Shown here in pieces: positions 4,829-59,473 of a DNA stretch of 64,000 nt. The stretch lies in the NCBI GenBank assembly GCA_964639295.1, contig CAZXDT010000001.1, forward strand, positions 117,068-181,067, in the 5' to 3' direction. The translations under genes were made by a program, and so were the position numbers. The stretch comes from an uncultured Candidatus Saccharibacteria bacterium (GTDB lineage Bacteria; Patescibacteriota; Saccharimonadia; Saccharimonadales; JALRHH01). Under the pieces are notes generated by a model, which ran no database searches, was not told the DNA's origin, and saw nothing but the letters and a program-made list of their open reading frames with translations. Each line of letters opens with the position of its first letter. Positions within the stretch are counted from its first letter, which is position 1.

Positions 4829-5773
4829 ATGAGTCCAGATACAAACACGCCGCTCGGGCAACCAACACCCGTAACCGAACCACAAATCGCGAGAGCACCT
4901 GCATATAAGCTCTTTTCCTACGGCAGCATGCTCGTAGGTACCATCTTTGGCAGTGGTTTTGCATTCATATATTTCATGTATAAAAACTATAAGAATATGG
5001 GCATGCTCGGCAAAGCATGGACAAGTATCCCACTAGGACTCCTCGGGTTTGGAGCGATTATTTTTGGCACCATTTTCCTGGAAGACCACACATCCATAAC
5101 GCTAAACGCTGGTTCTGTGAACGGGATATATATAGCCTGCGCAATGTTAGCTATTCGAGCAACCCAGTACGAACGCGTTATGCAACATAAAAAATCCGGC
5201 GGCGAATTTTACTCAGGCGTACGAGTATTTATTATTTCGGTACTCGGGCTGCTACTGGCTCTTAGTACATTCGTAGGGTTGTTACTTATTGATGCTAGGC
5301 AAAACAAGGTATCACTGCTCGACCAACTTTCCATTACCTTATCAAATTATGATTCTGAAAAGCACGATCGGCTTATTAACGAGTTCAACGCCAATGAAGA
5401 GAAGGCGCTGGTAGTAAACGAGCTGCCAAGTACTACGCCAAGCAGTCAGTACATTGCGACCCTCGATAGTAGCGTTGCAATCTTCAAGCAAAATCTGAGT
5501 ATTCTAAACGAGATCCAGGCATTACCAGGACTACCTAAAAGACTGCAGCAAGATAATAGCAAGATGATTGAGTATGTGAATCTACGTATTCAAGAGTTTG
5601 GGTTACTTAAGCAAGAGGAGGTTGAAAAGGACTACGCCAAATACAAGAGTGAAATAGAGAGTATAGGCAATCGTATCCGTGCAATACAAAAGGAATTGGG
5701 CATTGAAGACACTACGCCAGCGCCTGACATGAGCCCGAGCAGCCTCACAGTCGACCCCGACCCATTGAATTAA
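4829..5773 (+). CDS. hypothetical membrane protein with a coiled C-terminal half
   Basis: Track ORF 4760..5773. The likely start is MSPDTNTPLG at 4829. Several hydrophobic helices are followed by a charged region. Confidence 0.5.
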   Translation: MSPDTNTPLGQPTPVTEPQIARAPAYKLFSYGSMLVGTIFGSGFAFIYFMYKNYKNMGMLGKAWTSIPLGLLGFGAIIFGTIFLEDHTSITLNAGSVNGIYIACAMLAIRATQYERVMQHKKSGGEFYSGVRVFIISVLGLLLALSTFVGLLLIDARQNKVSLLDQLSITLSNYDSEKHDRLINEFNANEEKALVVNELPSTTPSSQYIATLDSSVAIFKQNLSILNEIQALPGLPKRLQQDNSKMIEYVNLRIQEFGLLKQEEVEKDYAKYKSEIESIGNRIRAIQKELGIEDTTPAPDMSPSSLTVDPDPLN

Positions 5774-11954: not shown

Positions 11955-12295
11955 GGAAGGCCGATGGTGCCACGAGCGAACTAACATCACCCCACGATGC
12001 GCTTGTGTTAACCCCCAGGCCATCGGCCTTCCGCCAACTGTTAGCGAAGCTCCTTCTCCCGGCAGGAGTAGAGTTAGCTAACAACAGGACCGACCGGCAG
12101 CTGTGTCTGTTCCTCTTCTCGAGGAGCTTCCTGTCAATCTGACACAGTGTGCTCAAGCAGCACTGCCGGTCGGTCCGTACTACCAGACTGAGATGAGCCC
12201 GAATGAAGCTTCCATAGTGTGGTTTCCCACACTAGGCACTTCGGTGACCATTGCTCCTCAGGAAGCTTCTGGTGCATCGGGCTCATCTCTCTGGT
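11955..12295. ncRNA. candidate large structured RNA of unknown class (strand undetermined)
   Basis: Perfect long-range stems: 11955-11967/12020-12032 (13 bp), 12087-12100/12163-12176 (14 bp) enclosing 12101-12107/12141-12147 (7 bp), and 12190-12202/12277-12289 (13 bp) enclosing 12205-12213/12261-12269 (9 bp). Only GC-artefact-looking ORFs overlap it. Confidence 0.4.
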
Positions 12296-12435: not shown

Positions 12436-13863
12436 ATGAAACCTGTCCGAACTCGTTTTGCACCATCACCAACCGGCTTTTTACATGTCGGAAACGTCCG
12501 TTCCGCACTGTTCCCATGGCTCGTCGCCAAACAAGCAGGCGGCAAGTTCATTTTGCGTATAGAAGACACTGACCAAGCCAGGGAAGTTGAAGGGGCTGTA
12601 GAAGTCTTGCACGAAACCTTGAACTGGATCGGCATCGATTGGGACGAAGGTCCTGACAAACAGGGTGAGTTTGGACCATACACTCAGAGTGAACGCCGTG
12701 ACATTTACCTTGCATGGGCACACAAACTTATCGCGTCTGGCCGTGCTTATGCTGACGTGCGCACCCCAGAAGAACTGACCGCACTCCGCGACCAGGCAAA
12801 AGCCGCTAAGAAGCCATTCCTGGCCCGCGAATTTCGTCCAGAAAATCCTCCTACATGGGAACCAGGCATGCCACTGCGATTCCTAAGCGAGCCAAAGGCC
12901 TATCAGTGGCATGATGCAGTAATGGGCGACCTCTCTGCAGGCGAGGAAGCTGTTGACGACTTCATTATCCTGAAGTCTGATGGGCTGCCTACCTACAACT
13001 TTGCACACATCGTCGATGATGCAGAAATGCAGATCACGCATGTTATCCGTGGCCTAGAATACATCGCTAGCGTACCTAAATACCTGAACTTATACGAAGC
13101 ACTTGGGGCTGAAGTACCTGTCCTAGCGCATGTGCCACATATCATGGCAGGTGATGGCAAGCGCAAACTCAGCAAACGTGATGGCGCAAAAAGCATCCTT
13201 GACTACCGTGACCAAGGATACACTCCTGAGGCAATGCTCAACTTCCTAGCATCTATGGGCTGGAATGATGGTACCGAACAAGAAATCTTTAGTAAGGAAG
13301 AGTTGGTTACTAAGTTTAACCTCGACCGCGTCCAACGTTCTGGCGCCAAGTTCGACGAACAGCGCCTGCAGTGGATGAACGGTAGCTGGATCCGCTCACT
13401 TGACACCAGTTCTATGTACACCCGTTGTCAAGATTTCTGGCCACCAGAGGCCAAAGATGCAACAGAGGACTACAAGATGCAAGTACTTGGCCTCGTCCAG
13501 GAACGCCTCAAGTACTTTGCTGAGCTCCCAGAACTTACTGCATTCTTTTTCCAAGATCTTCCGATCAACCCAGAACTTATCAGTGGCAACAAACAGCTCA
13601 GCAAGCTCGAACAATCAGATATTAAGAGCTATCTGGAGCAAGCAAAATCTATCTTAGAACAGAGTGATTTCACTGCAGAAGAGTTAACCAAAGAATTGAA
13701 CGAGTTATTAGAATCAACTGGTCAAAAGCCTGGCATTTTGTTTAGCCTTATCCGCATAGCAACAACTCAAGCCCCATTCAGCCCAGCCCTTGCTGATACA
13801 TTGGCGGTACTGGGCAAAGAAACCACCCTCCGCCGCCTCAACGCCCAACTAATCACCCTATAA
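12436..13863 (+). CDS. gltX: glutamate--tRNA ligase
   Basis: PSPTGFLHVGN (HIGH variant) and KLSKR (KMSKS variant). Start set at MKPVRTRFAPSPTG. Confidence 0.93.
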   Translation: MKPVRTRFAPSPTGFLHVGNVRSALFPWLVAKQAGGKFILRIEDTDQAREVEGAVEVLHETLNWIGIDWDEGPDKQGEFGPYTQSERRDIYLAWAHKLIASGRAYADVRTPEELTALRDQAKAAKKPFLAREFRPENPPTWEPGMPLRFLSEPKAYQWHDAVMGDLSAGEEAVDDFIILKSDGLPTYNFAHIVDDAEMQITHVIRGLEYIASVPKYLNLYEALGAEVPVLAHVPHIMAGDGKRKLSKRDGAKSILDYRDQGYTPEAMLNFLASMGWNDGTEQEIFSKEELVTKFNLDRVQRSGAKFDEQRLQWMNGSWIRSLDTSSMYTRCQDFWPPEAKDATEDYKMQVLGLVQERLKYFAELPELTAFFFQDLPINPELISGNKQLSKLEQSDIKSYLEQAKSILEQSDFTAEELTKELNELLESTGQKPGILFSLIRIATTQAPFSPALADTLAVLGKETTLRRLNAQLITL

Positions 13864-22387: not shown

Positions 22388-22440
22388 TCACTTTTCGTCC
22401 TTTTGGACTCGTCAGTACGACTTACATTCGTATAAGTGAT
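22388..22440 (-). ncRNA. type III hammerhead ribozyme motif (HH1)
   Basis: Minus strand reads TCACTT-A|TACGA-ATGTAAG-TCGTA-CTGACGA-GTCC-AAAA-GGAC-GAA-AAGTGA. Stem III is 6 bp, stem I 5 bp, stem II 4 bp with G10.1/C11.1. Cleavage triplet is UUA. The 3' edge lies 3 nt from the convergent response-regulator stop codon. Confidence 0.82.
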
Positions 22441-22523
22441 ATTACAAGAAGGAGGTGGTGTTTGGCGTGCGTGGGGCACCAGATTCTGCTTTCGCAAGAA
22501 AATGATGCCCCACGCAGAATGAC

Positions 22524-22868
22524 TCAGTTGAACGTGATGTTCAGGTGGCCGGTACGGCGACGAGTGCTGTAGTAGCCCTCGAAGGTACCACCGCGTGCGG
22601 TGATGCCGTTGGCGTGTGCCTGAGTGGGGTAGTTGCCCTTGATGATCCAGCTTTCACCAGAACCGTCTTCAGCAGCAATACCCGTGACCTGGAGAAACTC
22701 CTCCGAGATTGCCGGGTCGCCACGCAGCGCCTCGGAGTGTCCCTTCACACGGAAGAGCTTCACGACGCGCATGCCATCATTGCCGATCATGCCGATCAAC
22801 GAGAGCTGCTGGAACAGGTCGAACTTGTTGTCACCATCGGTGATCACGAACTTCTCTACGGTAGACAC
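22524..22868 (-). CDS. small GC-rich cassette protein (114 aa), unknown function
   Basis: GTG start 6 nt after AAGGAG. G/C-rich third positions contrast with neighbouring genes. The C-terminus GGTFEGYYSTRRRTGHL resembles that of ORF 38972..39415. Confidence 0.6.
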   Translation of the reverse strand: MSTVEKFVITDGDNKFDLFQQLSLIGMIGNDGMRVVKLFRVKGHSEALRGDPAISEEFLQVTGIAAEDGSGESWIIKGNYPTQAHANGITARGGTFEGYYSTRRRTGHLNITFN

Positions 22869-22889
22869 CAGTCTACTCCTTCTTGTAAA

Positions 22890-22921
22890 GTGTCATGGTT
22901 CTAGAGCCAGACCTCTGTTAC
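22890..22921 (-). promoter_or_regulatory. conserved 5' leader motif shared with the 38918-38949 leader
   Basis: Minus strand reads GTAACAGAGGTCTGGCTCT-N4-CCATGACAC. The 19-nt and 9-nt blocks are identical to those in the leader of ORF 38972. Confidence 0.55.
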
Positions 22922-22978
22922 TTAGCCTAAGCCAAATCACTTATCACCAGATAAGAATATCCCTAAGGATTAACAATT

Positions 22979-23007
22979 ATTATAGCAAAATTATGTAGTT
23001 TTGTCAA
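22979..23007 (-). promoter_or_regulatory. consensus sigma-70-type promoter driving the HH1 cassette
   Basis: Minus strand reads TTGACA-N17-TATAAT. Both hexamers are perfect, with a 17-nt spacer. Confidence 0.7.
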
Positions 23008-23258
23008 TGTTGCAGACTCTGGTAATAAGCATATAATTAAGAGTAGCCACGTGGAGACTGGGCAACCTTTCTTTACGGACTTATACAACTTTTGGCAAGC
23101 ATCCTTCGGGCTCTGTGCGCCACATATACAACTCAGCTTCACCTGTAGATACATCACGAACGGTTGATTTATCTCTAGCAGGCAGCTACAACCTATAACC
23201 CGTTCCATCTGAATACCACACCAGATGTCTTTTGTTTTAACTAAAGAATTACCAGGAG

Positions 23259-23510
23259 TTGTATATGACACTTAACCAAGAAATTACTGTAACAGGCTAC
23301 TACTTTACTAAAGGCAAGAGCTTCCCCAGCCGCGTGCAGTTCGGCGAAGACGAACTAACCTTTGCTGAAATCGGACTTCGCTGCCTCGTTAACAAGGGCC
23401 AAGGGTTAATCGAAATATTTACCATGTCTGATGGGCGCGACAACTACACAATTCGCCATGAACGCGCCAATCACCACTGGACACTACTATCTAAGCGGGC
23501 AATGGCGTAA
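23259..23510 (+). CDS. hypothetical protein (83 aa), first gene of the umuD-like/umuC operon
   Basis: AGGAG precedes the ATG. Its stop overlaps the next start (TAATG). Confidence 0.4.
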   Translation: MYMTLNQEITVTGYYFTKGKSFPSRVQFGEDELTFAEIGLRCLVNKGQGLIEIFTMSDGRDNYTIRHERANHHWTLLSKRAMA

Positions 23511-23860
23511 TGTACCACGACAATATTCCAAAAGATGCGGGGATCTCAATCCATACCGGGTTCCCAAACCCAGCTATTGACGCATCGCTCAAGGACTTGG
23601 ATCTTAACCAATTACTCATCAGCCATAGCGCTGCGACCTACTTCATGGAGATAGAAGGCAACAACTGGAGGTCCTTGGGCATCTTCAATAGTGACCTGGT
23701 TATCATCGACCGAGCTATGAGCATACAACCAAATGATATCGTCGTCTGGTGGCACGAAGACGCCTTTACACTTAGCCATCTACACCAAGTCCCCAAAGAC
23801 GCCGTTGTTTGGGGCGTCATCACCGCTACAATCCATCGGTTCAAGCAGGTAACCAGATGA
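23510..23860 (+). CDS. UmuD/LexA-C-terminal-like (S24 fold) protein, apparently lacking the catalytic Ser
   Basis: GFPNPA...YFMEIEGNNWRSLGIFNSDLVIIDRAMSIQPNDIVVWW aligns to UmuD ...VSGDSMIDGGI..GDLLIVD, but GDSM is replaced by GNNW. Confidence 0.6.
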   Translation: MYHDNIPKDAGISIHTGFPNPAIDASLKDLDLNQLLISHSAATYFMEIEGNNWRSLGIFNSDLVIIDRAMSIQPNDIVVWWHEDAFTLSHLHQVPKDAVVWGVITATIHRFKQVTR

Positions 23861-25191
23861 AACAACCACAAGTTCTAGCCCTCATTGATTGCAACAACTT
23901 CTTTGTCAGCTGCGAACGGCTATTTCGGCCGGACCTTGAAGGCAAGCCAGTTGTTGTACTGAGCAGTAATGATGGCTGCGCTGTGTCACGTAGTAACGAG
24001 GCCAAGGCAATTGGCATTCCTATGGGTGCTCCCGTATTTAAGTACCGCGATGTTATGGAGCGACACAGTGTCGTGAAGTTCAGTGCAAACTTTGAACTTT
24101 ACGGCAATGTGTCGCGTCGTATTACCGCACTCCTGACATCTATAACGCCTCGTATCGAGATCTACTCCATAGACGAGTCATTCCTGGACCTCAGCCAGCT
24201 ACCAATCACCGATTACGAGGCGTGGGGCAGTGAGGTCCGTGAGCTGATTCTCAAATGGGTTGGCATTCCTGTTTCCGTTGGTATTGCACCAACCAAAACA
24301 CTCGCCAAATTGGCTAATTTATCCGCTAAAAAGAACCCAGAGCTAGGTGGGGTATTATCACTTGTGAAAAGTCGTGAAAAGTCCGACACTCCAGATATAG
24401 ATGTAGCCAAAACCTGGCAATATCTGGAGAGAATGCCCGTAGGGGATATCTGGGGTATCGGTTGGCGCCTAGCGCCCAAAATGAGGGCAGAGGGCATCAG
24501 TAATGCACTCCATATGGCATGTGCCAGGCCGCAGCGAGCCCAACAGCTAATGGGCATTCATGGCAGGCAATTAGTCGCCGAATTAAACGGCACCAGCTGC
24601 TACCCTCTAGAATTAGAAGGCAAATTACCCCAAAGCATTGCCTCGACCAGAACCTTCGGCGAAGACACGAGTGACCCGTATGCCATTGAAGCAGCCCTAG
24701 CCACCTTCGTGACAACTGCCAGTTTTAAACTACGACGTAGCCAACAAATGACCAAACGCATAACCCTATTTGCCACTACCAACAAACACAAACCTGGCTA
24801 TACCAGCTGGTGGCGTGAAGTACGATTAGACCAACCTACGGCGGATCCCGGCATACTCATCGCAAAGGCGAGAGAAGCATTCCATGAATTCTATAGTCCA
24901 CAGATCATGTACCACCGAGCAGGGATCACACTCCATGATTTTGTACCTGACAGCCAGCTACAAACTGATTTACTGGGTACTATCAATTCAACTATTCACG
25001 ATAGATCAAAAGACCGAATGCTAGCCTTTGATGCCATTAACCAGCGATATGGTAAGCGGACCATCCGGATGAGCTCAGAGCTGATGGCAAGTCAATGGAA
25101 GCCCAAATACCAACTCCGCAGCCCCCGCTACGTCAGTCGGTGGAATGAATTACCGCAAATAGCATCAACTTACTCAAGTGGCCGCAAGTGA
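23857..25191 (+). CDS. umuC: Y-family DNA polymerase (UmuC-like)
   Basis: ALIDCNNFFVSCE, SIDESFLDL. ATGA overlap with the upstream umuD-like gene. Start set at MKQPQVLALID. Confidence 0.85.
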   Translation: MKQPQVLALIDCNNFFVSCERLFRPDLEGKPVVVLSSNDGCAVSRSNEAKAIGIPMGAPVFKYRDVMERHSVVKFSANFELYGNVSRRITALLTSITPRIEIYSIDESFLDLSQLPITDYEAWGSEVRELILKWVGIPVSVGIAPTKTLAKLANLSAKKNPELGGVLSLVKSREKSDTPDIDVAKTWQYLERMPVGDIWGIGWRLAPKMRAEGISNALHMACARPQRAQQLMGIHGRQLVAELNGTSCYPLELEGKLPQSIASTRTFGEDTSDPYAIEAALATFVTTASFKLRRSQQMTKRITLFATTNKHKPGYTSWWREVRLDQPTADPGILIAKAREAFHEFYSPQIMYHRAGITLHDFVPDSQLQTDLLGTINSTIHDRSKDRMLAFDAINQRYGKRTIRMSSELMASQWKPKYQLRSPRYVSRWNELPQIASTYSSGRK

Positions 25192-25826: not shown

Positions 25827-26360
25827 GTGAAGCGCAAGCTCATGATCGTCAGCGCGTTCGTCCTTTGCTTCGTCGTCGGCATCACCCTCATGGGGAACAC
25901 CGCCGCCAACGCCAAGGGCAAGCCCGCACCGGCCACCGACCCGTCATCGCTCGTCGCCAACGTGTACATCAACTACTCGCAGGACTACAACGGCAACTTC
26001 GTCGTCTACGCCAGCCAGTTCGATCACATGGAGGCCACTGAGTGGGGCTCCTACCCGGTGTTCGAGCCCTGCGCTCCGGAGGTCTGCGGCACGCTGGTGA
26101 TCAGCCACAAGGGCAAGACGCCGACGCTGACGCTGACGCTGTCCAAGCTCGCCACCGAGACACTCGTGTCCGGCAGCAAGAGCTACAGCAGCCCGGACTA
26201 CTCGCAGTACCACTACTACACCTGGGACGGCTCGTCCATCCCGCTGGTGCGGAAGTTCAAGGACTCGGGCAAGCCCGTCTCCGTACCGCTGCAGTACGCA
26301 TCGATCAGCCTGTACCTCGAGGGTGCTCCGGTACCCCCGTCGGGCTCGTGCTGCAAGTGA
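25827..26360 (+). CDS. GC-rich secreted protein, unknown function
   Basis: GTG start after GAAGGGA. Signal-like VKRKLMIVSAFVLCFVVGITLMGNTAANA. Line 26041-26100 counts 42/60 G+C. The AT-rich N-terminal extension in the track ORF is probably leader, not coding. Confidence 0.6.
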   Translation: MKRKLMIVSAFVLCFVVGITLMGNTAANAKGKPAPATDPSSLVANVYINYSQDYNGNFVVYASQFDHMEATEWGSYPVFEPCAPEVCGTLVISHKGKTPTLTLTLSKLATETLVSGSKSYSSPDYSQYHYYTWDGSSIPLVRKFKDSGKPVSVPLQYASISLYLEGAPVPPSGSCCK

Positions 26361-26508
26361 TGTTCTGACGTCGTGGGAGGCAACACCTCAACAGGAGTTG
26401 CCTCCCACGGCTCACATCACCCCGCACGCACCACAATCCCTTCTGAACTATTACACTTTGATTTTTTGCCAAAGAACCCTAAAAGGGTTCTTTTTTTATC
26501 AAGCAAAA

Positions 26509-27888: not shown

Positions 27889-27910
27889 TGGTGATCTCGA
27901 GGGGAATCGA
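27889..27910 (-). repeat. 22-nt direct repeat of the tRNA-Glu 3' end (att-like)
   Basis: TGGTGATCTCGAGGGGAATCGA is identical to 28076-28097. Identity stops inside the T-loop. Confidence 0.85.
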
Positions 27911-28041
27911 CCTACCTTCGGCAGGCCCGAAACTACGTCCTTGAAAACCAGTTTTCAAGAGTAGGTTTCCTTGCGAATTGCCACAGGCAATTCTCACCCT
28001 ATTACCAGCCGGCAACAGGCGTTTGATTCCGCAATAACAGT

Positions 28042-28075: not shown

Positions 28076-28150
28076 TGGTGATCTCGAGGGGAATCGAACC
28101 CCTATTGCCAGGATGAGAACCTGGCGTCCTAACCGTTAGACGACGAGACC
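28076..28150 (-). tRNA. tRNA-Glu (anticodon CTC), CCA encoded
   Basis: Minus strand reads GGTCTCGTCGTCTAACGGTTAGGACGCCAGGTTCTCATCCTGGCAATAGGGGTTCGATTCCCCTCGAGATCACCA. Anticodon loop is TTCTCAT. Confidence 0.9.
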
Positions 28151-28304: not shown

Positions 28305-29228
28305 GTGAAGGCTATGCACATTTTGAAGTGGTGCACCGTCGTGATCGTAGCGGTGATCTTCATCGCATGGTTCATCGACGCACGCATGAAGAAGACATTC
28401 CGCAAGCAGGCAGATGCCTGGCTCGAGGAGCGCACGGCAGTTCGCGAGTCCGGTAACACACAGCAGATCCTGCAGTTCCTGGACTCCAACCCGGTACCGG
28501 CTGGCAGTAAGCGGTTCGGTGACATCAGGCTGGCTCTCGGCGCGCACAAGCGTCTCTGCGAGGAGCTCAAAGACGAGATCAAGCTCGGGAAGCGTCGCAA
28601 GTACAACGCAGGCAGGGTCAACAAGATCAAGCTGATCGACTCGATCGACGAGCAGTACAATGCGTTGATCAACATCGGTGAACTGCGGTTCGGCCAGATG
28701 GTGGATGGTTATCGGTATTCCGACAGAGTCGTTCTTAATCCCAAGGACGCCGAGTGGATCACCGCTGAGCTGACCAAGCTGGCCGCCGCCAAAGCAGCAC
28801 GCTTGCTAGCTGCCGCCGAGAACGGTGACCAGGGAGCGTTCATGGAACTCCATGAGTTCACCCGCAAGAGTTCTGATACATGGGCTAGCAGAGAGGAGTA
28901 CATTCGACAGACGATGGGCAAGCCCTACGAGACACCACCCAACTGGGACGAGCTACTGGTCCGTTTCTACGAGAACCCCACGGTGAACCAGTTCCGTTGC
29001 CAGGTAAGTCCCTCGGCTTACGGTGATGCCGGCATCAGCACGATGGCTGCTCAGGCTCTTCGCAAGCGCAATCTCGTAGTGCTCCGTTACATCATGGTGC
29101 GCTGTGCAACTTACGGGGGTTACCGCGCTGAGCTGGGTGACGTCTTGTACGCCGAGATCGTCAAGATGGCCGATCAGCTGTACACCGAGCTGAAGACCAG
29201 CTCCACCTGCACCACCACAATTTCATAA
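28305..29228 (+). CDS. GC-rich membrane-anchored protein (307 aa), unknown function
   Basis: N-terminal TM helix (WCTVVIVAVIFIAWFI). Line 28441-28500 counts 36/60 G+C. G/C-ending codons. Confidence 0.6.
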   Translation: MKAMHILKWCTVVIVAVIFIAWFIDARMKKTFRKQADAWLEERTAVRESGNTQQILQFLDSNPVPAGSKRFGDIRLALGAHKRLCEELKDEIKLGKRRKYNAGRVNKIKLIDSIDEQYNALINIGELRFGQMVDGYRYSDRVVLNPKDAEWITAELTKLAAAKAARLLAAAENGDQGAFMELHEFTRKSSDTWASREEYIRQTMGKPYETPPNWDELLVRFYENPTVNQFRCQVSPSAYGDAGISTMAAQALRKRNLVVLRYIMVRCATYGGYRAELGDVLYAEIVKMADQLYTELKTSSTCTTTIS

Positions 29229-37661: not shown

Positions 37662-37911
37662 TACAGACTTTTACAGATATAATTCAGTATAAATACTCTT
37701 GCTTAAATAAGCAGATTGTTTTATACTTGATAGGTTTTGTTGACGGTTTGAGAACATTTTTCTCACCTCCAAAATGCACATTTGACAAGTAGATTGAGCC
37801 GCACAAAGCGAGGCATCGGACCATGGGTGGAAATGGTTCGTTTTCTCGCTTTGTGCCACAGAAGAGCACGTCATTACGCATGATACCCGCGAGAGCAAGT
37901 TAGGAGCCGCC

Positions 37912-38214
37912 ATGTACCTTAAGCGACGCGATCGTGTACTCGTATACGGACCGTCGAACGCTCAGTTTGCACTTCTCGGTTTGAACATTGATCAAACCAG
38001 AGCAGAGCAACTGGAGCGTGTGATCAAGCAAAGATTCAGAGCTGAGATCACCAGTGTTTGGGTCAGTCCTGACGTCCCCGGACAGTTCAGTGTCATGATC
38101 AGTGAAGACAAGTCCCGCACACCCTCGAGCCACCTGCTCGAACGCGTGGCCCGCTTCACACAGTACGACATCGGCTGGAACCCCAATAACACCCAAGTTA
38201 TCACCCGACCCTGA
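37912..38214 (+). CDS. small GC-rich cassette protein (100 aa), unknown function
   Basis: AGGAG lies 7 nt upstream of the ATG. G/C-rich codons. The 193-aa antisense ORF 37900..38481 is judged a GC artefact. Confidence 0.55.
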   Translation: MYLKRRDRVLVYGPSNAQFALLGLNIDQTRAEQLERVIKQRFRAEITSVWVSPDVPGQFSVMISEDKSRTPSSHLLERVARFTQYDIGWNPNNTQVITRP

Positions 38215-38223
38215 AAGGCACAC

Positions 38224-38412
38224 ATGCTTCGACCTACGCGAGATGACAACGGTTACCCGGTCTACGAAGGACGACAGTACGTCGACCTGCACATCGCAAT
38301 CCACGGCTTCGACCCGACTCCTACGGCCCACAACACCACGCCCATCCGCTCTACCAGGAACAACAGTTCCAACGCTGGCCTGGTGAGCTGGTTCTTCGGC
38401 TTGTTCCTGTAG
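38224..38412 (+). CDS. small GC-rich cassette protein (62 aa) with a hydrophobic C-terminus
   Basis: Follows the previous ORF by 9 nt. Ends GLVSWFFGLFL. Same composition as the previous ORF. Confidence 0.4.
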   Translation: MLRPTRDDNGYPVYEGRQYVDLHIAIHGFDPTPTAHNTTPIRSTRNNSSNAGLVSWFFGLFL

Positions 38413-38510
38413 GGACACGCTGATTGCCAAGGGGGCGACCAATACCCACACGCTGCGTGTGTTGGTCGCCCTCGGCGCCACTCTTCAAACCCCGCTCTCT
38501 ACTTGTCAAA

Positions 38511-38577
38511 TTCACTATACGAATAGGGGACCACGCGTCCCGAGTCGTACTGATGAGTCGTAAACGACGAAAGTGAA
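38511..38577 (+). ncRNA. type III hammerhead ribozyme motif (HH2)
   Basis: TTCACT-A|TACGA-(ATAGGGGACCACGCGTCCCGAG)-TCGTA-CTGATGA-GTCG-TAAA-CGAC-GAA-AGTGAA. The cleavage site (CUA) lies after 38517. Stem I is capped by an inner GGGAC/GTCCC hairpin. Confidence 0.85.
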
Positions 38578-38591
38578 ACTGCAATCAATTG

Positions 38592-38833
38592 TTGCGTTGA
38601 AGGCTAAAGCCTTCACCACCTTCTTTTCTGTGCCGACAGAAAAGAAGCAAAAGAGGCTCGTGGCGACATCAAAACGAGATTACAAGTATAACCTGGCTAT
38701 TTGCGTATCGACAGAACGCAAGCGGCCCATTTTTTTATTTAGGATCAAAATGGGCATGCTGTCGGTTTGATTCGCAAATAGTCTGAATACTTGTATCTGT
38801 TTTGCTGAGCCACCCAACCACGCCCGGACGGTT
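38592..38833 (+). ncRNA. unclassified structured element, copy A1 (A-type middle domain)
   Basis: TTGCGT, HP1 TGAAGGC-TAAA-GCCTTCA, HP2 CTTCTTTTCTGT-GCCG-ACAGAAAAGAAG, then GAAGCAAAAGA. Internal helices covary with copy A2. The 3' motif is CCACGCCCGGACGGTT. Confidence 0.6.
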
Positions 38834-38861
38834 GAGGGGATTGTTAACAATATGGTATAAT
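38832..38861 (+). promoter_or_regulatory. probable promoter of the HH3 cassette (extended -10)
   Basis: TTGAGG-N18-TGgTATAAT. The -35 overlaps the 3' end of element A1. Confidence 0.55.
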
Positions 38862-38917
38862 ATATCTTAATCTACGGATATTTCCTCATGTATGTGGGGT
38901 GGCTCAACGCACGTTGA

Positions 38918-38949
38918 GTAACAGAGGTCTGGCTCTGATTCCATGACAC
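38918..38949 (+). promoter_or_regulatory. conserved 5' leader motif (paralogue of 22890-22921)
   Basis: GTAACAGAGGTCTGGCTCT-GATT-CCATGACAC. Confidence 0.55.
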
Positions 38950-38971
38950 CTATTAACAAGGAGGTGGACGT

Positions 38972-39415
38972 ATGTCCACTGCACAAGAAAAAATCGTTGT
39001 CCCTAAAAGACTGGAGATCTTCAAAGGTCCAGGGTTCGGTGAACTGAACGGACAACTGACAGACATCAGTCGTTCGGTTGCATTGGATGGGAAGCGATTT
39101 CCGTTCACGTTCCACGTGAGGCCTATTGATGTGCCGGATAAGGACGAGTTCACCCTTGAAGTGCTGCTTAGCGGGCTTGCTTCCGTGCACGGTGATGGCT
39201 ACTCGTACCGGTTTCCTTCATATGCTGAAAAAGAGCGTGAGTGGTACTTCCGCGGTGTTGTAGATAATTACGGAAGTGAGAGCAGTAACGCTGGGCTGTA
39301 CAAGAGCATCATGTTCGGCGGGGCTGATCCAGTGATCATCAAACAGTGCCGTGGTCGCTACGACACGCACAGCCGTAGTGGCTACATTGAGCCGGGAAGC
39401 TGGAAGTTCGAGTGA
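38972..39415 (+). CDS. small GC-rich cassette protein (147 aa), unknown function
   Basis: AAGGAGG lies 7 nt upstream of the ATG. The C-terminus CRGRYDTHSRSGYIEPGSW aligns with FEGYYSTRRRTGHLNITF of ORF 22524..22868. Confidence 0.6.
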   Translation: MSTAQEKIVVPKRLEIFKGPGFGELNGQLTDISRSVALDGKRFPFTFHVRPIDVPDKDEFTLEVLLSGLASVHGDGYSYRFPSYAEKEREWYFRGVVDNYGSESSNAGLYKSIMFGGADPVIIKQCRGRYDTHSRSGYIEPGSWKFE

Positions 39416-39476
39416 CGTGCCGGGAGGCGATGTTGATGCGTTCGCATCGCCTCCCGCAGTCCCTCCTTGTTAATAA

Positions 39477-39529
39477 TCACTTATACAAATGTGTATTTGT
39501 ACTGATGAGACCAAAAGGTCGAAAAGTGA
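39477..39529 (+). ncRNA. type III hammerhead ribozyme motif (HH3)
   Basis: TCACTT-A|TACAAAT-GTGT-ATTTGTA-CTGATGA-GACC-AAAA-GGTC-GAA-AAGTGA. Cleavage (UUA) occurs after 39483. Confidence 0.85.
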
Positions 39530-39535
39530 CAAAAC

Positions 39536-39759
39536 AAACCGTCTGAGCGTGGGGTGGGCATCGGCTTTGGCCCGAGGAGTGACTCAAAGAATCTGGGCGT
39601 TCTTAAAATATGGCTGTTTGAGGCCCCGAATGGCCGAGTTCCGCATTTTTAGGCCAGATTACTTGAGGTACTTCCCGGAGACAAAACGCAGCACATGGGT
39701 TTTTGCTTCTTTTGGGCTAAGCCAAAAGAAGGTGAGCAGGCATTCATGCCTGATCGCAA
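39536..39759 (-). ncRNA. unclassified structured element, copy B1 (B-type middle domain)
   Basis: Minus strand reads TTGCGA, HP1 CAGGCA-TGAA-TGCCTG, HP2 CTTCTTTTGG-CTTAGC-CCAAAAGAAG, GAAGCAAAAA, then a B-type core (CTGCGTTTTGTCTCCGGGA...GGAACTCG...CAAACAGCCA...) collinear with copy B2. Confidence 0.55.
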
Positions 39760-39789
39760 TCTAAGCTAAAAGGTATTAGAATAAGCTTT

Positions 39790-42378: not shown

Positions 42379-42406
42379 TTGCTTATACTCATAAAAATGA
42401 TATAAT
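42379..42406 (+). promoter_or_regulatory. possible promoter of the HH4 cassette
   Basis: TTGCTT-N16-TATAAT. The GATATAATT context resembles 37676-37684 upstream of the HH2 cassette. Confidence 0.4.
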
Positions 42407-42554
42407 TATCACGTTTTGTTGATGCCCGTAAAGCGTCCAAACGTTATTTGACAAGTAGACAAGAAAGAAATGACAGAAGAGTCTAGCTTACTAGGTTGTT
42501 CTGTCATTTCTTCAAGAGAACACCCAACCCCTCCCAGTTAGGAAGCGTGAGTAC

Positions 42555-42890
42555 ATGAAGCACCGCATGACCGAGGTTGAAAAGAAAGTTGCTGATCTGG
42601 AATACCGGACCAGTATTACCTTCGACGAAGAGCAGAACGTATGGCGCCTTACCTGTGAGTCCGTCGATATCTCGACCCCCTCACATCCGAAAACGGGCAG
42701 AGTACCTCCCGAAGTCTTGTGTGACTTCAGAGAAGCTGTCGCCAAGACATACCGAGGACGTCTGCTTCGAGGACAGGTCATCACCGCCATAAGCCGCCGC
42801 TATGAAGAGGCCATCACGAAGTACAAACCCTTCATCAGACGACAAACCATGTTCGACGAGATGCGAGCGGTCGCTGGTCAGATCAGTTGA
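42555..42890 (+). CDS. small GC-rich cassette protein (111 aa), unknown function
   Basis: GGAAG precedes the ATG. The composition contrasts with flanking topA. Confidence 0.55.
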   Translation: MKHRMTEVEKKVADLEYRTSITFDEEQNVWRLTCESVDISTPSHPKTGRVPPEVLCDFREAVAKTYRGRLLRGQVITAISRRYEEAITKYKPFIRRQTMFDEMRAVAGQIS

Positions 42891-42974
42891 TCACGTAGAC
42901 GGGGGTGGGTGTGCACTCGAGTTGCTGCCTCTGGCCGCACTCCTGCGCATTCTCGCCCCCGTCTACTTGTCATA

Positions 42975-43031
42975 TCTTTACTATACGAATGCGTATTTGT
43001 ACTGATGAGATCAAAAGATCGAAAGTAAAGA
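42975..43031 (+). ncRNA. type III hammerhead ribozyme motif (HH4)
   Basis: TCTTTACT-A|TACGAAT-GCGT-ATTTGTA-CTGATGA-GATC-AAAA-GATC-GAA-AGTAAAGA. Stem III is 8 bp. Cleavage (CUA) occurs after 42983. Confidence 0.85.
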
Positions 43032-56942: not shown

Positions 56943-57169
56943 TTGCGTTGAAGGCTAAAGCCTTCACCACCTTCATTTCTTGTGTCGACAAGAAACTGAA
57001 GCAAAGAAACTCGGACTGCGTTTTGTCTCCGGGATGCCTGGCAAGCAATTGAGCCTAAAATTTTGGAACTCGCGGTTTAGCGCTTCAAACAGCCAAAATT
57101 TCAGAACGGCTCAATTCTATGCCAGTCCTCTCGGGCCGAAGCCGATGTCCGGACCACGCCCGGACGGTT
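56943..57169 (+). ncRNA. unclassified structured element, copy B2 (B-type middle domain)
   Basis: The first 33 nt (56942-56974) are identical to A1 38591-38623. The B-type core is collinear with B1 and has compensatory helices (CAATTGAGCC/GGCTCAATT versus AATCTGG/CCAGATT). The 3' 16 nt CCACGCCCGGACGGTT are identical to A1. Confidence 0.55.
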
Positions 57170-57245
57170 TATCAATAATCATAAAGCCTGTGTACAAGCA
57201 AAAAAACGGCGAGGAATTCTCGTCGTCGGCTTAAATGCTTAAATA

Positions 57246-57614
57246 CTACTGGTGGCCTGAAGTACGAACTTCAATCTTCTGGCCAATCTCGAGTGGTTGC
57301 TGAACATTAATAGCCACACCACCAAGATGCGCCTCAATAACAGCTAAATCATGTAGCTGCTCTGCGTTATCCATCGCAAACCTTTTAGCAGATTCCATGT
57401 CATTTGCATACTGCCGTCGCTGAATATCAACTACCTGTTGCTCATTGTATTCCACCCATCTTTGAGGCAATCCTGGACCACCTTGCCGCAAATCAGTTTT
57501 TTTAAGCTCTCTAAATTCTGTCTCGGCGTTTTCAGCTAATCTAGCACGTAGCTCATGACTTGTGTAATGTGCTACTGCTTCTTTACGAATTTCGTTTAGT
57601 GTTTTTCTTGACAT
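57246..57614 (-). CDS. hypothetical protein (122 aa), cargo of the second A/B-bracketed unit
   Basis: ORF with ordinary composition. There is no SD. TTGACA-N17/18-TAATTA lies just upstream, suggesting a near-leaderless mRNA. A terminator hairpin plus T-run lies downstream at about 57190-57240. Confidence 0.5.
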   Translation of the reverse strand: MSRKTLNEIRKEAVAHYTSHELRARLAENAETEFRELKKTDLRQGGPGLPQRWVEYNEQQVVDIQRRQYANDMESAKRFAMDNAEQLHDLAVIEAHLGGVAINVQQPLEIGQKIEVRTSGHQ

Positions 57615-57667
57615 ACTATATAATTAATCATACTCATGCTTTTTTGTCAATAATGTGTAACTATAAT

Positions 57668-57909
57668 CATCGTCCGGGCGGGGTTTGTGCATCGGAAAAA
57701 CCGGTGGCTGGCATCAGGGCTACTCCGAATCAAGTCGGCAGTGTCCCCTATTTCCATCCTAAGTAAAGAAATAGGGGCGCTTGCGTTCTGTCGACGCGGA
57801 GTAGCCCTGGTTTGACTGCCAACAGTGTTTTTTCGCCGCACGAGCTTCTTTTGCTTCATTTCTTGCGATCAAGAAAAGAAGTTGGGCGGACCTTTAGGTC
57901 CGGACGAAA
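57668..57909 (-). ncRNA. unclassified structured element, copy A2 (A-type middle domain)
   Basis: Minus strand reads TTTCGT, HP1 CGGACC-TAAA-GGTCCG, HP2 CTTCTTTTCTTG-ATCG-CAAGAAATGAAG, GAAGCAAAAGA. The helix CCCCTATTTC/GAAATAGGGG replaces A1 GCCCATTTT/AAAATGGGC, with a conserved loop TTAYTTAGGAT. CTACTCCG/CGGAGTAG replaces CTATTTGCG/CGCAAATAG. Confidence 0.6.
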
Positions 57910-57921
57910 CTTGAGCTAAAA

Positions 57922-58959
57922 CTATTTCTTTAATTCGTCTGAAAGATTCAGGGCTTCTTTGGTTTCATCGTCTTCGGTTAGTTTGAGCGGCTTTTTGCTC
58001 TTGATCTCGTAACGGAGGCCGGTCATTGGTGATTCGTAGTAATCGTCGTTGAGGAGGTTTACGAACTTAGTCAGGTCTTTAGTATCCATTATGATGATTG
58101 AACCGTCAGTGTCGGTCATTAGATCAATACCGAGCTCTTCTGCGTGGTTTAGCAACTCATCTTGTTTAACGGCATTGGTGTCGATCTTCTGCAATTTGTT
58201 GATGAGTGGCTTTTTCTCCATGACGAGGCTATTCATTGTGGCACCGTCAGCAAAGCTGAGTTTGAAATTCTCTTGAATCTCGGCAACCTTTTTCTCTGCA
58301 ATGGCGGCTTTTTTAGCGTTGTAGTTGAACAGCTGCTCGAGTTTGGCTTGGTTAAAAACATAGATGTCTTGTTCCAGAATGAGCATTTGGTTGTCATTTG
58401 GCACGCGGAAGGCACCATCTGCGTCAAATGGCACGAATTTGCCACCACGCATTAGCCAGCCGACATTGCCCTTCATGACATTGGCGCTTGGCATAATTTT
58501 AGGTACGTAGAATGGCTGCGTTAAGCTTGGGTGGCTGACGCGAGCGATGATACCTTTAATACGCTTGAGGTCGTGCTCTTCCTCAACAAATTGCTCTATC
58601 TCCGCTTCTTGGGTCTTCAGCCAGCTTAAAGTCTCACGAGCTTTAGGCACGTTCTTAAGCCTGGTACGTTGCAGCACCATTTGCTCTGCCTCGGCTTCCT
58701 CGAAGCTTCTAACAGTTAGGCCAACATCCGCACCTTCTAGTACGTATTCTAGGATTGGGTCAATAAGTGCTTGGTGGAGTGATAGTTCGAGGTCTTTACT
58801 CCGGGAAGTCTTGTAGACTACTCCGTTTTTGTTTATCAGAAATAGCTCAATTTTGAGCTCTTCTTTAATCTGGACTAGGTTATTAGCCCATAAGAAAATG
58901 TCTGTCTCGACGTAATCGTCGGCGTGTTCGCTAAAAGTAGGTGTAGTTTTGTCTTCCAT
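57922..58959 (-). CDS. hypothetical protein (345 aa)
   Basis: Acidic, soluble-looking protein with no catalytic motif recognised. A vague resemblance to DUF4868-type proteins could not be verified. Confidence 0.5.
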   Translation of the reverse strand: MEDKTTPTFSEHADDYVETDIFLWANNLVQIKEELKIELFLINKNGVVYKTSRSKDLELSLHQALIDPILEYVLEGADVGLTVRSFEEAEAEQMVLQRTRLKNVPKARETLSWLKTQEAEIEQFVEEEHDLKRIKGIIARVSHPSLTQPFYVPKIMPSANVMKGNVGWLMRGGKFVPFDADGAFRVPNDNQMLILEQDIYVFNQAKLEQLFNYNAKKAAIAEKKVAEIQENFKLSFADGATMNSLVMEKKPLINKLQKIDTNAVKQDELLNHAEELGIDLMTDTDGSIIIMDTKDLTKFVNLLNDDYYESPMTGLRYEIKSKKPLKLTEDDETKEALNLSDELKK

Positions 58960-59014: not shown

Positions 59015-59473
59015 TTAAGCAGCAAGTAGAGATTCTACTGAATGAACTGGGACAAACACACCGGAGCGTATTCGTTCACCTACGAACAGAGGGTTTGATT
59101 TACTTGCAAGAACTCGTGCTTCGCAAAGCTGTAAACACAGGCTAGAGAGTGTCCCGTAACGGATAAATGTAAAACGACTGAAGTTACTATGCATCACGGC
59201 ATCCGCAAAATAGGTGTCGTGATATAGCTGTTCATCAGATGATACTGCATTCTTCCCTTGGTACAACACAAGGGCGCCCAAAGTATGCACAATTACCTTG
59301 TTACCACCATGCAGCTCACGCGGGTCACCCATAACTTCTATGGCTTCGGCGGCGAAAACGACCTGCATTTCTGCTTCCATTGTTGCAAGGTTAGTCTGTA
59401 GTTCCTTGGCAACTTGTAGAGTATCCGCCGGGACAACGAGGTTAGATCTTGGTGATAAGTCTATGGCTTCCAT
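59015..59473 (-). CDS. hypothetical protein (152 aa)
   Basis: Co-oriented with 57922..58959 and 55 nt upstream of it. No motif recognised. Confidence 0.45.
   Translation of the reverse strand: MEAIDLSPRSNLVVPADTLQVAKELQTNLATMEAEMQVVFAAEAIEVMGDPRELHGGNKVIVHTLGALVLYQGKNAVSSDEQLYHDTYFADAVMHSNFSRFTFIRYGTLSSLCLQLCEARVLASKSNPLFVGERIRSGVFVPVHSVESLLAA

Follow-up and report, generated by a model that had tools for sequence, protein, structure and literature searches.

Why does the chromosome of an uncultured Candidatus Saccharibacteria bacterium carry four copies of a long, elaborately folded element arranged in pairs around small orphan genes? The copies, named A1, B1, B2, and A2, are located in a stretch of 64,000 nucleotides (nt) of contig CAZXDT010000001.1 (assembly GCA_964639295.1, positions 117,068–181,067 of the forward strand), which is referred to here as the window. 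They belong to an undescribed family of modular palindromic repeats, about 230–260 nt long, from Saccharibacteria chromosomes. The repeats form inverted doublets, and comparisons of orthologous sites indicate that a doublet brackets a slot in which one small accessory gene can take the place of another, change orientation, or disappear. We favor, with a probability of roughly 45%, the reading that the units are non-autonomous palindromic bookends of a cassette slot that are read as folded DNA and resemble doublets of repetitive extragenic palindromic (REP) sequences, such as REP doublets forming hairpins (REPINs) and bacterial interspersed mosaic elements (BIMEs).

Anatomy and fold of the elements

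Read from the outside of a doublet to its inside, each unit starts with an outer tag (TTAGCTCA..TTGCG), continues with two short hairpins and a long imperfect rod, and ends in an inner tag (CCACGCCCGGACG) (Table 1). The hairpins are part of the 5′ module, in which TTGCG, hairpin 1, a CCACCTTC linker, hairpin 2, and GAAGCAAA follow one another. The units are 224–264 nt long and contain three folded domains. The 5′ module is common to all copies of the family and the inner tag to most, whereas TTAGCTCA is present in many and TATTCTAATACC, located beyond it, in some. The four copies reported in a preliminary description of the window are real according to alignment, motif, and profile searches, which detected no fifth copy in the 64 kb. 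Its account of the 5′ module and of the 3′ motif CGCCCGGACG, which is degenerate in B1, was correct. The middle domains, which form the rods, were assigned to two types, A and B; both exist, but there is also a third type, C, which is related to B, and the commonest type is A. The core coordinates of the units stand, while the outer boundary has to be moved: many copies reach ~10–25 nt further out into TTAGCTCA and sometimes TATTCTAATACC. This extension is wholly missing from B2 and from A1, which is instead abutted by the hammerhead ribozyme HH1. Of the single-stranded stretches thought to be conserved, GAAGCAAA, TTGATTCG, and CTGCGTTTTG are kept, but AACGCAAGCG is variable. Some copies carry a longer mini-hairpin in its place, which points to a conserved three-way junction. 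The first 39 nt of B2 are 97% identical to the start of A1. A shared contig start at position 38594 was considered as a transcript end and rejected, since it is an assembly break at a 33-nt repeat common to A1 and B2. Look-ups of exact protein matches to genes of the window gave no strain other than this one.

Table 1 Coordinates of the repeat units, their cargo, and associated features. Positions refer to the window unless a relative is named.
Feature	Coordinates	Strand	Description
A1	38580..38835	+	A-type module; outer 5′ module to inner CGCCCGGACG motif; nhmmer match 38593-38835, E = 3e-60
B1	39533..39781	-	B-type module including outer extension TATTCTAATACCTTTTAGCTTAG; nhmmer match 39533-39758; outer 5′ module 39687-39759
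B2	56943..57173	+	B-type module; nhmmer match 56944-57173, E = 2.5e-66; repeat family D4
A2	57665..57919	-	A-type module including outer TTTTAGCTCAAG extension; nhmmer match 57665-57908, E = 4.5e-65
Cargo gene 1 (ORF147)	38972..39415	+	147-aa orphan; ORF list
Cargo gene 2	57246..57614	-	122-aa orphan; ORF list
Promoter-like site of cargo 1	38832..38861	+	TTGAGG-18-TATAAT with TG; promoter scan, 10/12 matches
Promoter-like module TTGACAAAAAAGCATGAGTATGAT	57627..57650	-	Inner side of A2; read from the sequence, not called by the consensus scan
Terminator-like hairpin and U7	57200..57231	-	Downstream of cargo 2; read from the sequence
HH1	38511-38577	+	Hammerhead
HH2	39477-39529	+	Hammerhead at the 3′ end of cargo 1; Rfam Hammerhead_3 E = 0.09, descriptor search
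HH3	42977-43029	+	Hammerhead
HH4	22388-22439	-	Hammerhead
Hammerhead cassette	37900-38590
Hammerhead cassette	38840-39530
Hammerhead cassette	42400-43030
Hammerhead cassette	22390-23010	-
Hammerheads of L145	~11975-12030, ~12625-12680
Hammerhead of L147	~5100-5165
Hammerheads of L150			Four
Hammerheads of L155			Two
Hammerhead of L160			One

Relative to dinucleotide shuffles, the fold z scores are −7.1 for A1, −6.5 for A2, and −4.3 for B2; that of B1 (−1.9) is marginal. Covariation was evaluated in an alignment of ten A-type copies from the window and six other contigs. The proportion of paired cells is 88.4%, compared with 69.4% in shuffles, and 43 of 68 pairs exhibit two-sided changes with pairing kept, a number reached by none of 500 shuffles (27.4 ± 2.6). 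The covariation score of 0.50 exceeds those of shuffles (0.16) and of slid partners (0.08–0.13), and the helices of the B and C types are supported too. Conservation among genomes with dprA genes only ~80% identical in DNA sequence extends to the asymmetric internal loops, the junction with the mini-hairpin, and those unpaired stretches that are kept. The fold is under selection across genomes, and the compensatory helices proposed for the four window copies hold and generalize.

The fold is equally significant on both strands. Composition-controlled z scores of 17 copies average −5.48 on the strand assigned in the preliminary description, which is poorer in G+T, and −5.46 on its complement. 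In the helices that both strand predictions share, there are 22 G-T, 29 A-C, and 52 other mismatches, the last distributed over eight types; with only 51 informative cells the power of this comparison is modest. Per mismatch type, G-T and A-C are each only about twice as common as the others, as expected from a transition bias on its own. These few cells give no hint that a strand tolerating G·U pairs is transcribed, and G·U pairs are rare even in a control set of 14 hammerheads from the same genomes, where they occupy six cells (2.6%) and A·C was not seen by eye in the alignment. An assignment to the opposite strand, at first favored by raw energies and wobble counts, was rejected because of the equal controlled z scores and the symmetric counts in shared helices. 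For the same reasons the strand assigned initially is not established, and without an assigned strand the copies can be called neither convergent nor divergent.

Doublets, slots, and orthologous sites

A search for homologues, proposed in the preliminary description, yielded 17 further copies from at least five other Saccharibacteria-like genomes or contigs, in addition to the covariation described above, and increased the family to 21 copies. They were found by pattern scans of species-representative genomes, JGI metagenomes, and viral contigs and in fetched neighborhoods of dprA homologues. The copies are from a Candidatus Saccharibacteria metagenome-assembled genome (L128, two copies), metagenome Ga0172379 (L134, four copies; L137 and L138, two each), a metagenome contig (L139 = L140, one copy), ENA and JGI assemblies (L142 = L143, four copies), and a Logan assembly (L160, two copies). 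The scan of the genome collection produced 15 matches, about the chance level, with one real copy locus (L128), and five of the seven metagenome matches were real. A loose two-motif pattern matched viral contigs 116 times, always by chance, and stricter A-type and B-type patterns did not match them at all; the family is not phage-borne in the viral collection scanned. The preliminary description did not recognize the elements as one of several known RNA classes, and they match no family in the Rfam 15 search: at gathering thresholds the whole window contains only three tRNAs, none of them on the units, and with E-values up to 10 the units obtained only chance-level miRNA, snoRNA, and CRISPR-DR matches (E > 2). 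Literature searches returned nothing about these elements, and nothing about hammerheads of Saccharibacteria or Patescibacteria.

Twenty of the 21 copies are arranged in ten inverted doublets with their 5′ modules directed outward and their inner tags facing each other; the L139 copy is the only singleton. The layout of a pair around one gene, initially recognized in the window, recurs in other genomes. The pairing of an A with a B copy is not a rule, because A/A and A/C doublets exist alongside A/B ones. Doublets sit between core genes at many unrelated intergenic sites, and the flanking genes have housekeeping functions (dprA, topA, mnmA, alaS, rseP-like, RNase J, signal peptidase, prmC, and htrA). 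Long-range pairing of the outer modules into a stalk for RNase III was rejected, as hairpin 1 differs between the partners in most pairs.

The slot between the partners varies in content. That of L134 pair 1 has no gene, with 19 nt between the inner tags and 13 nt between the annotated element ends, and the slot of L160 is a short AT-rich spacer. Two small hairpins around a promoter-like site occupy the slots of L138 and L134 pair 2. Slots with a single gene contain the orphans of 147 and 122 amino acids (aa) in the window, or orphans of 70, 282, and 184 aa and a YdjC-like gene in relatives. The L139 singleton is followed by a co-oriented NUDIX hydrolase gene. Cargo genes are co-oriented with the adjacent A unit in all gene-bearing loci examined, as was noticed for the window at the outset. 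Their junctions are directly at the inner tags, and the stop codon of the L142 YdjC-like gene comes immediately after CGCCCGGACG. Neither cargo gene of the window has a Pfam or PADLOC family; the first matches only itself among 5.8 billion proteins, and the second is absent from protein records elsewhere. Pair 2 of the window (B2 and A2) is adjoined by a KwaB-like protein of the Kiwa anti-phage defense system (57922-58959, minus strand; Pfam and PADLOC). A 152-aa open reading frame (ORF) upstream of the KwaB-like gene (59015-59473, minus strand) has no family, and a recognizable KwaA partner was not seen.

The history of the slots can be followed at orthologous sites, because the gene order Pth-dprA-variable interval-ORF57-topA-variable interval-sigma is kept in relatives. 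The dprA–topA interval of the window contains a hammerhead cassette, which is a small-gene unit of a second class described below, and then A1, ORF147, HH2, and B1. In L142, with dprA 89% identical to that of the window, a decayed hammerhead is followed by a B unit, a reversed YdjC-like gene, and an A unit. Hammerhead cassettes followed by a scar of roughly 50 nt are present in L145 (dprA identity 82%), and hammerhead cassettes only in L150 (77%) and L155 (72%). According to BLAST, the window and L142 are collinear through dprA and again from position 39687, inside the 5′ module of B1, onward, and the B middle domain has its match in L142 inverted, on the far side of the unit. Between the two genomes the right outer module is 95% identical, even though it is joined to a B rod in the window and to an A rod in L142, and an identity matrix does not indicate any special orthology between their rods. 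More generally, similarities of 5′ modules and rods are incongruent (A1 and B2, 90%; B1 and L142A1, 95%). The L145 site, with its scar junction at 12697-12726, reads TTAGCACAAGTTGCGTTGAAGGC-TTCA-GGTTTGAACGCAATATGAGCTAA; the outer halves of two different hairpins 1, a left and a right one, are fused there at the loop, and their arms are mismatched. In the topA–sigma interval, L142 carries an A/ORF184/A pair and L160 a decaying A/C pair, while the window and L150 have hammerhead cassettes instead.

Overall, the history of the outer modules is distinct from that of the rods. The outer modules stay conserved while the segment between them is replaced in either orientation, and entire units can be lost, with endpoints in the loops of hairpins 1. 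A simple in-place inversion between the window and L142 was rejected in favor of replacement, since the rods have no special orthology and the cargo differs. The opposite arrangement with replaced cargo and the scar at an orthologous site favor the earlier proposal that the units are the ends of a recombining cassette. The mosaic modules and the loss or decay of pairs in some lineages (L145 scar and L160) would also be expected of neutral or selfish long palindromes, the arms of which are kept complementary by mismatch correction or gene conversion inside hairpins and which spread only via homologous recombination with flanking core genes during transformation. The symmetric mismatch spectrum and the lack of mobility genes nearby fit this explanation too. 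Homogenization of the arms, however, would erase the internal loops and bulges that stay conserved, and the pairs occur at many unrelated intergenic sites, which makes neutral palindromes improbable.

Transcription signals and hammerhead cassettes

Cargo genes usually have their own promoter abutting the inner end of the A unit. The preliminary description of both window cargoes as promoter-bearing holds for locus 1, which has a strong promoter-like site with the −35 box overlapping the inner tail of A1, but less so for locus 2, in which there is only a TTGACA box and the −10 box is ambiguous. The TTGACAAAAAAGCATGAGTATGAT module of locus 2 is identical in 23 of 24 positions to a sequence beside an A copy of L137 that has a different cargo. 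In scans of four loci, the only promoters detected belong to a cargo or to the center of a slot, and the unit ends have no terminators; none of the units comes with a sigma-70-like promoter or an intrinsic terminator of its own. The units were initially likened to a pair of small RNA (sRNA) genes, and independent sRNA genes in convergent pairs, each transcribed from its outer end towards the cargo, would account for the fold and covariation. Some copies contain a −10-like TCTAAT/TAGAAT in the outer extension, and in L138 and L134 pair 2 there are small hairpins beyond the inner ends. However, a consensus scan detects no promoter upstream of any unit nor a terminator after it, A1 and B2 have no outer extension, and the outer end of the L139 unit abuts the ATG of a divergent dinB-like gene. 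Moreover, the units of L134 pair 1 are only 13 nt apart at their inner ends and have no terminators, and there is no Rfam relative. The units are very improbable as sRNA genes.

Several observations concern transcription start sites around the units. An outer extension AGCTAAAAGGTA(T/C)TAGAATA is common to unrelated loci (window 39760-39789, L134 6962-6985, and L142 12121-12150), and an outward −10-like TAGAAT is positioned exactly 7 nt upstream of the ORF57 ATG, possibly giving a leaderless start. The outer end of a unit may thus supply a promoter to the neighboring gene. Several cargo genes appear leaderless as well (L128 2164-2200, L142 11860-11900, and window 57614-57650, all on the minus strand), with a −10 box that ends ~7 nt before the ATG and no Shine-Dalgarno sequence.

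The preliminary description missed the hammerheads that flank A1 and B1, the CTGATGAG...CGAAA cores of which adjoin these units. The window contains four hammerheads, and ten more are located in the same hotspots of relatives. They have the type III core CUGANGA...GAAA, stems I–III, an open end at stem III, and a NUH cleavage triplet. The alignment of the 14 sequences has an invariant core and 96.6% paired cells, with a covariation score of 0.65 versus 0.22. Their Rfam scores of 20–23 bits are below the gathering threshold of 48.5, but the hammerheads are genuine type III ribozymes. Each window hammerhead is preceded by a GC-rich hairpin and, before that, by a small orphan gene of relatively high GC content. 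Together these define a second class of small cassettes, which consist of their own promoter, a leader, an orphan ORF of 60–150 aa, a GC-rich hairpin, and a hammerhead. The GC content of the ORFs is 0.52–0.58, compared with about 0.46 for the genome. Hammerhead cassettes occupy the dprA–topA and topA–sigma hotspots, where relatives carry different cassettes. The ribozymes probably cut the cassette transcript free of that of the downstream core gene.

HH2, which is located after a GC-rich hairpin and has a predicted cleavage site after position 39483, belongs to the cargo cassette and not to the element family. A functional link between hammerheads and units was rejected, as most loci with elements have no hammerhead and relatives that lack elements do have them; the two are independent.

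The 47-nt 5′ leader of ORF147 (38917-38963, plus strand) recurs with 81% identity at 22876-22922 (minus strand), in front of the 114-aa ORF in the HH4 cassette, to which ORF147 is unrelated; this suggests a leader or ribosome-binding module common to cassettes. The decayed hammerhead of L142 (10890-10965), with broken stems II and III and no ORF in front of it, lies between dprA and the element pair. It is orthologous to the intact HH1 cassette of the window, and cassettes decay in place. Genes for a UmuD-like peptidase and a Y-family polymerase (23510-25191, plus strand) adjoin the HH4 cassette, and the dinB-like gene of L139 (1166-1928, plus strand) starts right at the outer end of the A unit; these neighborhoods may be coincidence. 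The 3′ part of a tRNA gene (28079-28150, minus strand) is duplicated 187 nt away (27889-27925 and 28076-28112, 81% identity over 37 nt), with GC peaks beside the duplication at 26001-26500 (0.60) and 28501-29000 (0.57), and may be the scar of an integration at the tRNA gene.

A possible, less probable alternative is that the units are cis-acting structured RNA modules, which would be carried on longer transcripts rather than expressed from promoters of their own and would insulate the cassette. Owing to the inverted layout, a transcript that enters or leaves the slot on either side would meet a unit in the same orientation, which would block, process, or stabilize the RNA, and the unit would do the same job as the hammerhead at the 3′ end of neighboring cassettes. 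Such a role is consistent with the large elaborate fold, the strong covariation, and the conserved unpaired stretches, and units share with the self-cleaving hammerheads both the hotspots and the position relative to small genes. In most loci, according to a tally of layouts, transcription from the central or cargo promoter would run through the downstream unit into the next gene. An invariant motif of the A type becomes CG-CUUG-CG, a tetraloop hairpin that is stable as RNA, on the opposite strand, where G·U pairs also occur in several helix extensions. G·U pairs are infrequent (2.6%) in the hammerheads too. On the other hand, the composition-controlled fold significance has no strand preference, and G·U and A·C are equally frequent in the shared helices. 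In locus 2 the terminator-like hairpin with U7 is located between the cargo and B2, so that B2 may not be co-transcribed with the cargo. The hairpins of the units are not intrinsic terminators themselves because no U-tracts follow them. A cis-acting RNA alone also leaves the module shuffling, the opposite arrangement, and the scar unexplained.

Proposed folded bookends and known systems

In the reading that we favor, in which the units are folded DNA bookends, a doublet defines a slot that is empty, contains a promoter, or contains one accessory gene. Each unit would fold into hairpins when single-stranded, for example at a replication fork or once it has been taken up by natural transformation, and would then be recognized by a trans-acting enzyme. 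Because the outer modules are conserved inverted repeats, recombination within them could replace the internal segment in either orientation or delete it. We infer that the folded form is DNA rather than RNA and that there is a dedicated enzyme, and the way in which new sites would be colonized is likewise part of the inference.

A number of points weigh against this reading. The flanks of the complete pairs that were read contain no target-site duplication, and single units have no terminal inverted repeats. There are no transposase, integrase, or recombinase genes in the 64-kb window or beside any pair, no Y1 transposase in the window or in the loci of relatives (at most 21 kb each), and no candidate for the trans-acting enzyme in the window or beside the pairs. 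The density of four copies per 64 kb looks low, unlike that of REP families, which are characterized by tens to hundreds of copies and a RAYT (Y1 transposase) gene in the genome. Ordinary homologous recombination, or recombination stimulated by palindromes, could have produced both the L145 scar and the L142 rearrangement without dedicated machinery. To our knowledge, no DNA recombination site comes near the complexity of a ~230-nt fold with conserved internal loops and a three-way junction. Elaborate, loop-conserving folds with invariant unpaired stretches are typical of, and better precedented among, functional RNAs, and the symmetry of wobble pairs was judged from the 51 informative cells with their modest power.

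A bolder version of the folded-DNA reading, which we consider unlikely, is that ultra-small bacteria of the Candidate Phyla Radiation possess a chromosomal system for exchanging gene cassettes that is new to science, with the units as its recognition sites in the form of large folded single-stranded DNA, or RNA-guided, bookends. If true, the system would let naturally transformed DNA swap, flip, or remove accessory genes one at a time in fixed slots flanked by essential genes, and it would function as an integron that has no integrase and uses a novel type of site.

The genomes of Saccharibacteria are tiny and contain few recognizable mobile elements, yet their accessory genes turn over fast. 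Doublets and hammerhead cassettes mark where small orphan genes are gained, replaced, and lost in them, and the doublets may be part of the turnover machinery or at least its signature. Few non-coding elements absent from RNA databases are as large and covary as strongly as these units. As folded DNA, they would extend the concept of REP and attC sites to sites of far greater complexity; as RNA, they would represent a new class of large structured RNAs in the Candidate Phyla Radiation. In either case, defined slots with conserved flanks provide a handle for genetics in cultivable, naturally competent Saccharibacteria.

REPs, REPINs, and BIMEs form head-to-head dimers, including heterodimers, with DNA inserted between the partners (PMC3733652, PMC3116915). 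The units share with them the extragenic position between core genes, mosaic structure, non-autonomous nature, and inverted dimers that are often heterodimeric, and the ten doublets are inverted extragenic homo- or heterodimers of this kind. Hairpin 1 has the plan of a REP, with a tag, a stem of 6–8 base pairs (bp), a 4-nt loop, and a CCA-like tail (PMC3733652, PMC3116915). The short tagged REP unit of 20–40 bp with GTAG or CGTC is lacking: the units are ~6–10 times longer (230–260 versus 20–40 nt), their usual tag is TTGCG, CGTC is present only in A2, GTAG is absent, and no RAYT gene was seen in the DNA at hand (PMC3733652). They also differ from REPs in their three folded domains, conserved internal loops, and low copy number. 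Unlike REPINs and BIMEs, the doublets regularly carry a whole gene and a promoter. Neisseria intergenic mosaic elements (NIMEs) are a further analogue of REP-like doublets.

Integron attC sites are recognized in a strand-specific manner as folded single-stranded DNA, which is an established mechanism. The units resemble them as structure-conserved, sequence-variable folded sites around single, mostly orphan genes with a promoter on one side. Sites of the attC type are single hairpins of 57–141 nt in direct orientation, one per cassette, and need an adjacent IntI and attI. By contrast, the units are three-domain structures in inverted pairs with one slot per pair and cargo that usually has its own promoter, and there is no integrase in the window or the loci. 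GTTGCGT / ACGCAAC of the units is one position off the R″/R′ core consensus (RYYYAAC / GTTRRRY). Units bracketed by miniature inverted-repeat transposable elements (MITEs) and invertons are similar in that two inverted non-coding repeats flank a gene or promoter and both orientations occur among relatives. The units differ from these in having no terminal inverted repeats, target-site duplication, or cognate invertase or transposase; their outer tags TTAGCTCA / TGAGCTAA are inverted, yet the flanks lack the duplication of a MITE or transposon end. Unlike an inverton, the relative differs by replacement of the cargo and not by a simple flip. Size and covariation are typical of large structured non-coding RNAs, but searches that allowed E-values as high as 10 matched the units to no Rfam 15 model. 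Analogies to tRNA-like structures, group II introns, omega or bridge RNAs, rolling-circle single-strand origins, dif/Xer sites, and telomeres were set aside on anatomical grounds. The units fail defining features of REPs (size and tag), of integrons (orientation, core sites, and integrase), and of MITEs (target-site duplication). Their organization is closest to that of REP, REPIN, and BIME doublets, and conceptually they are also close to attC sites.

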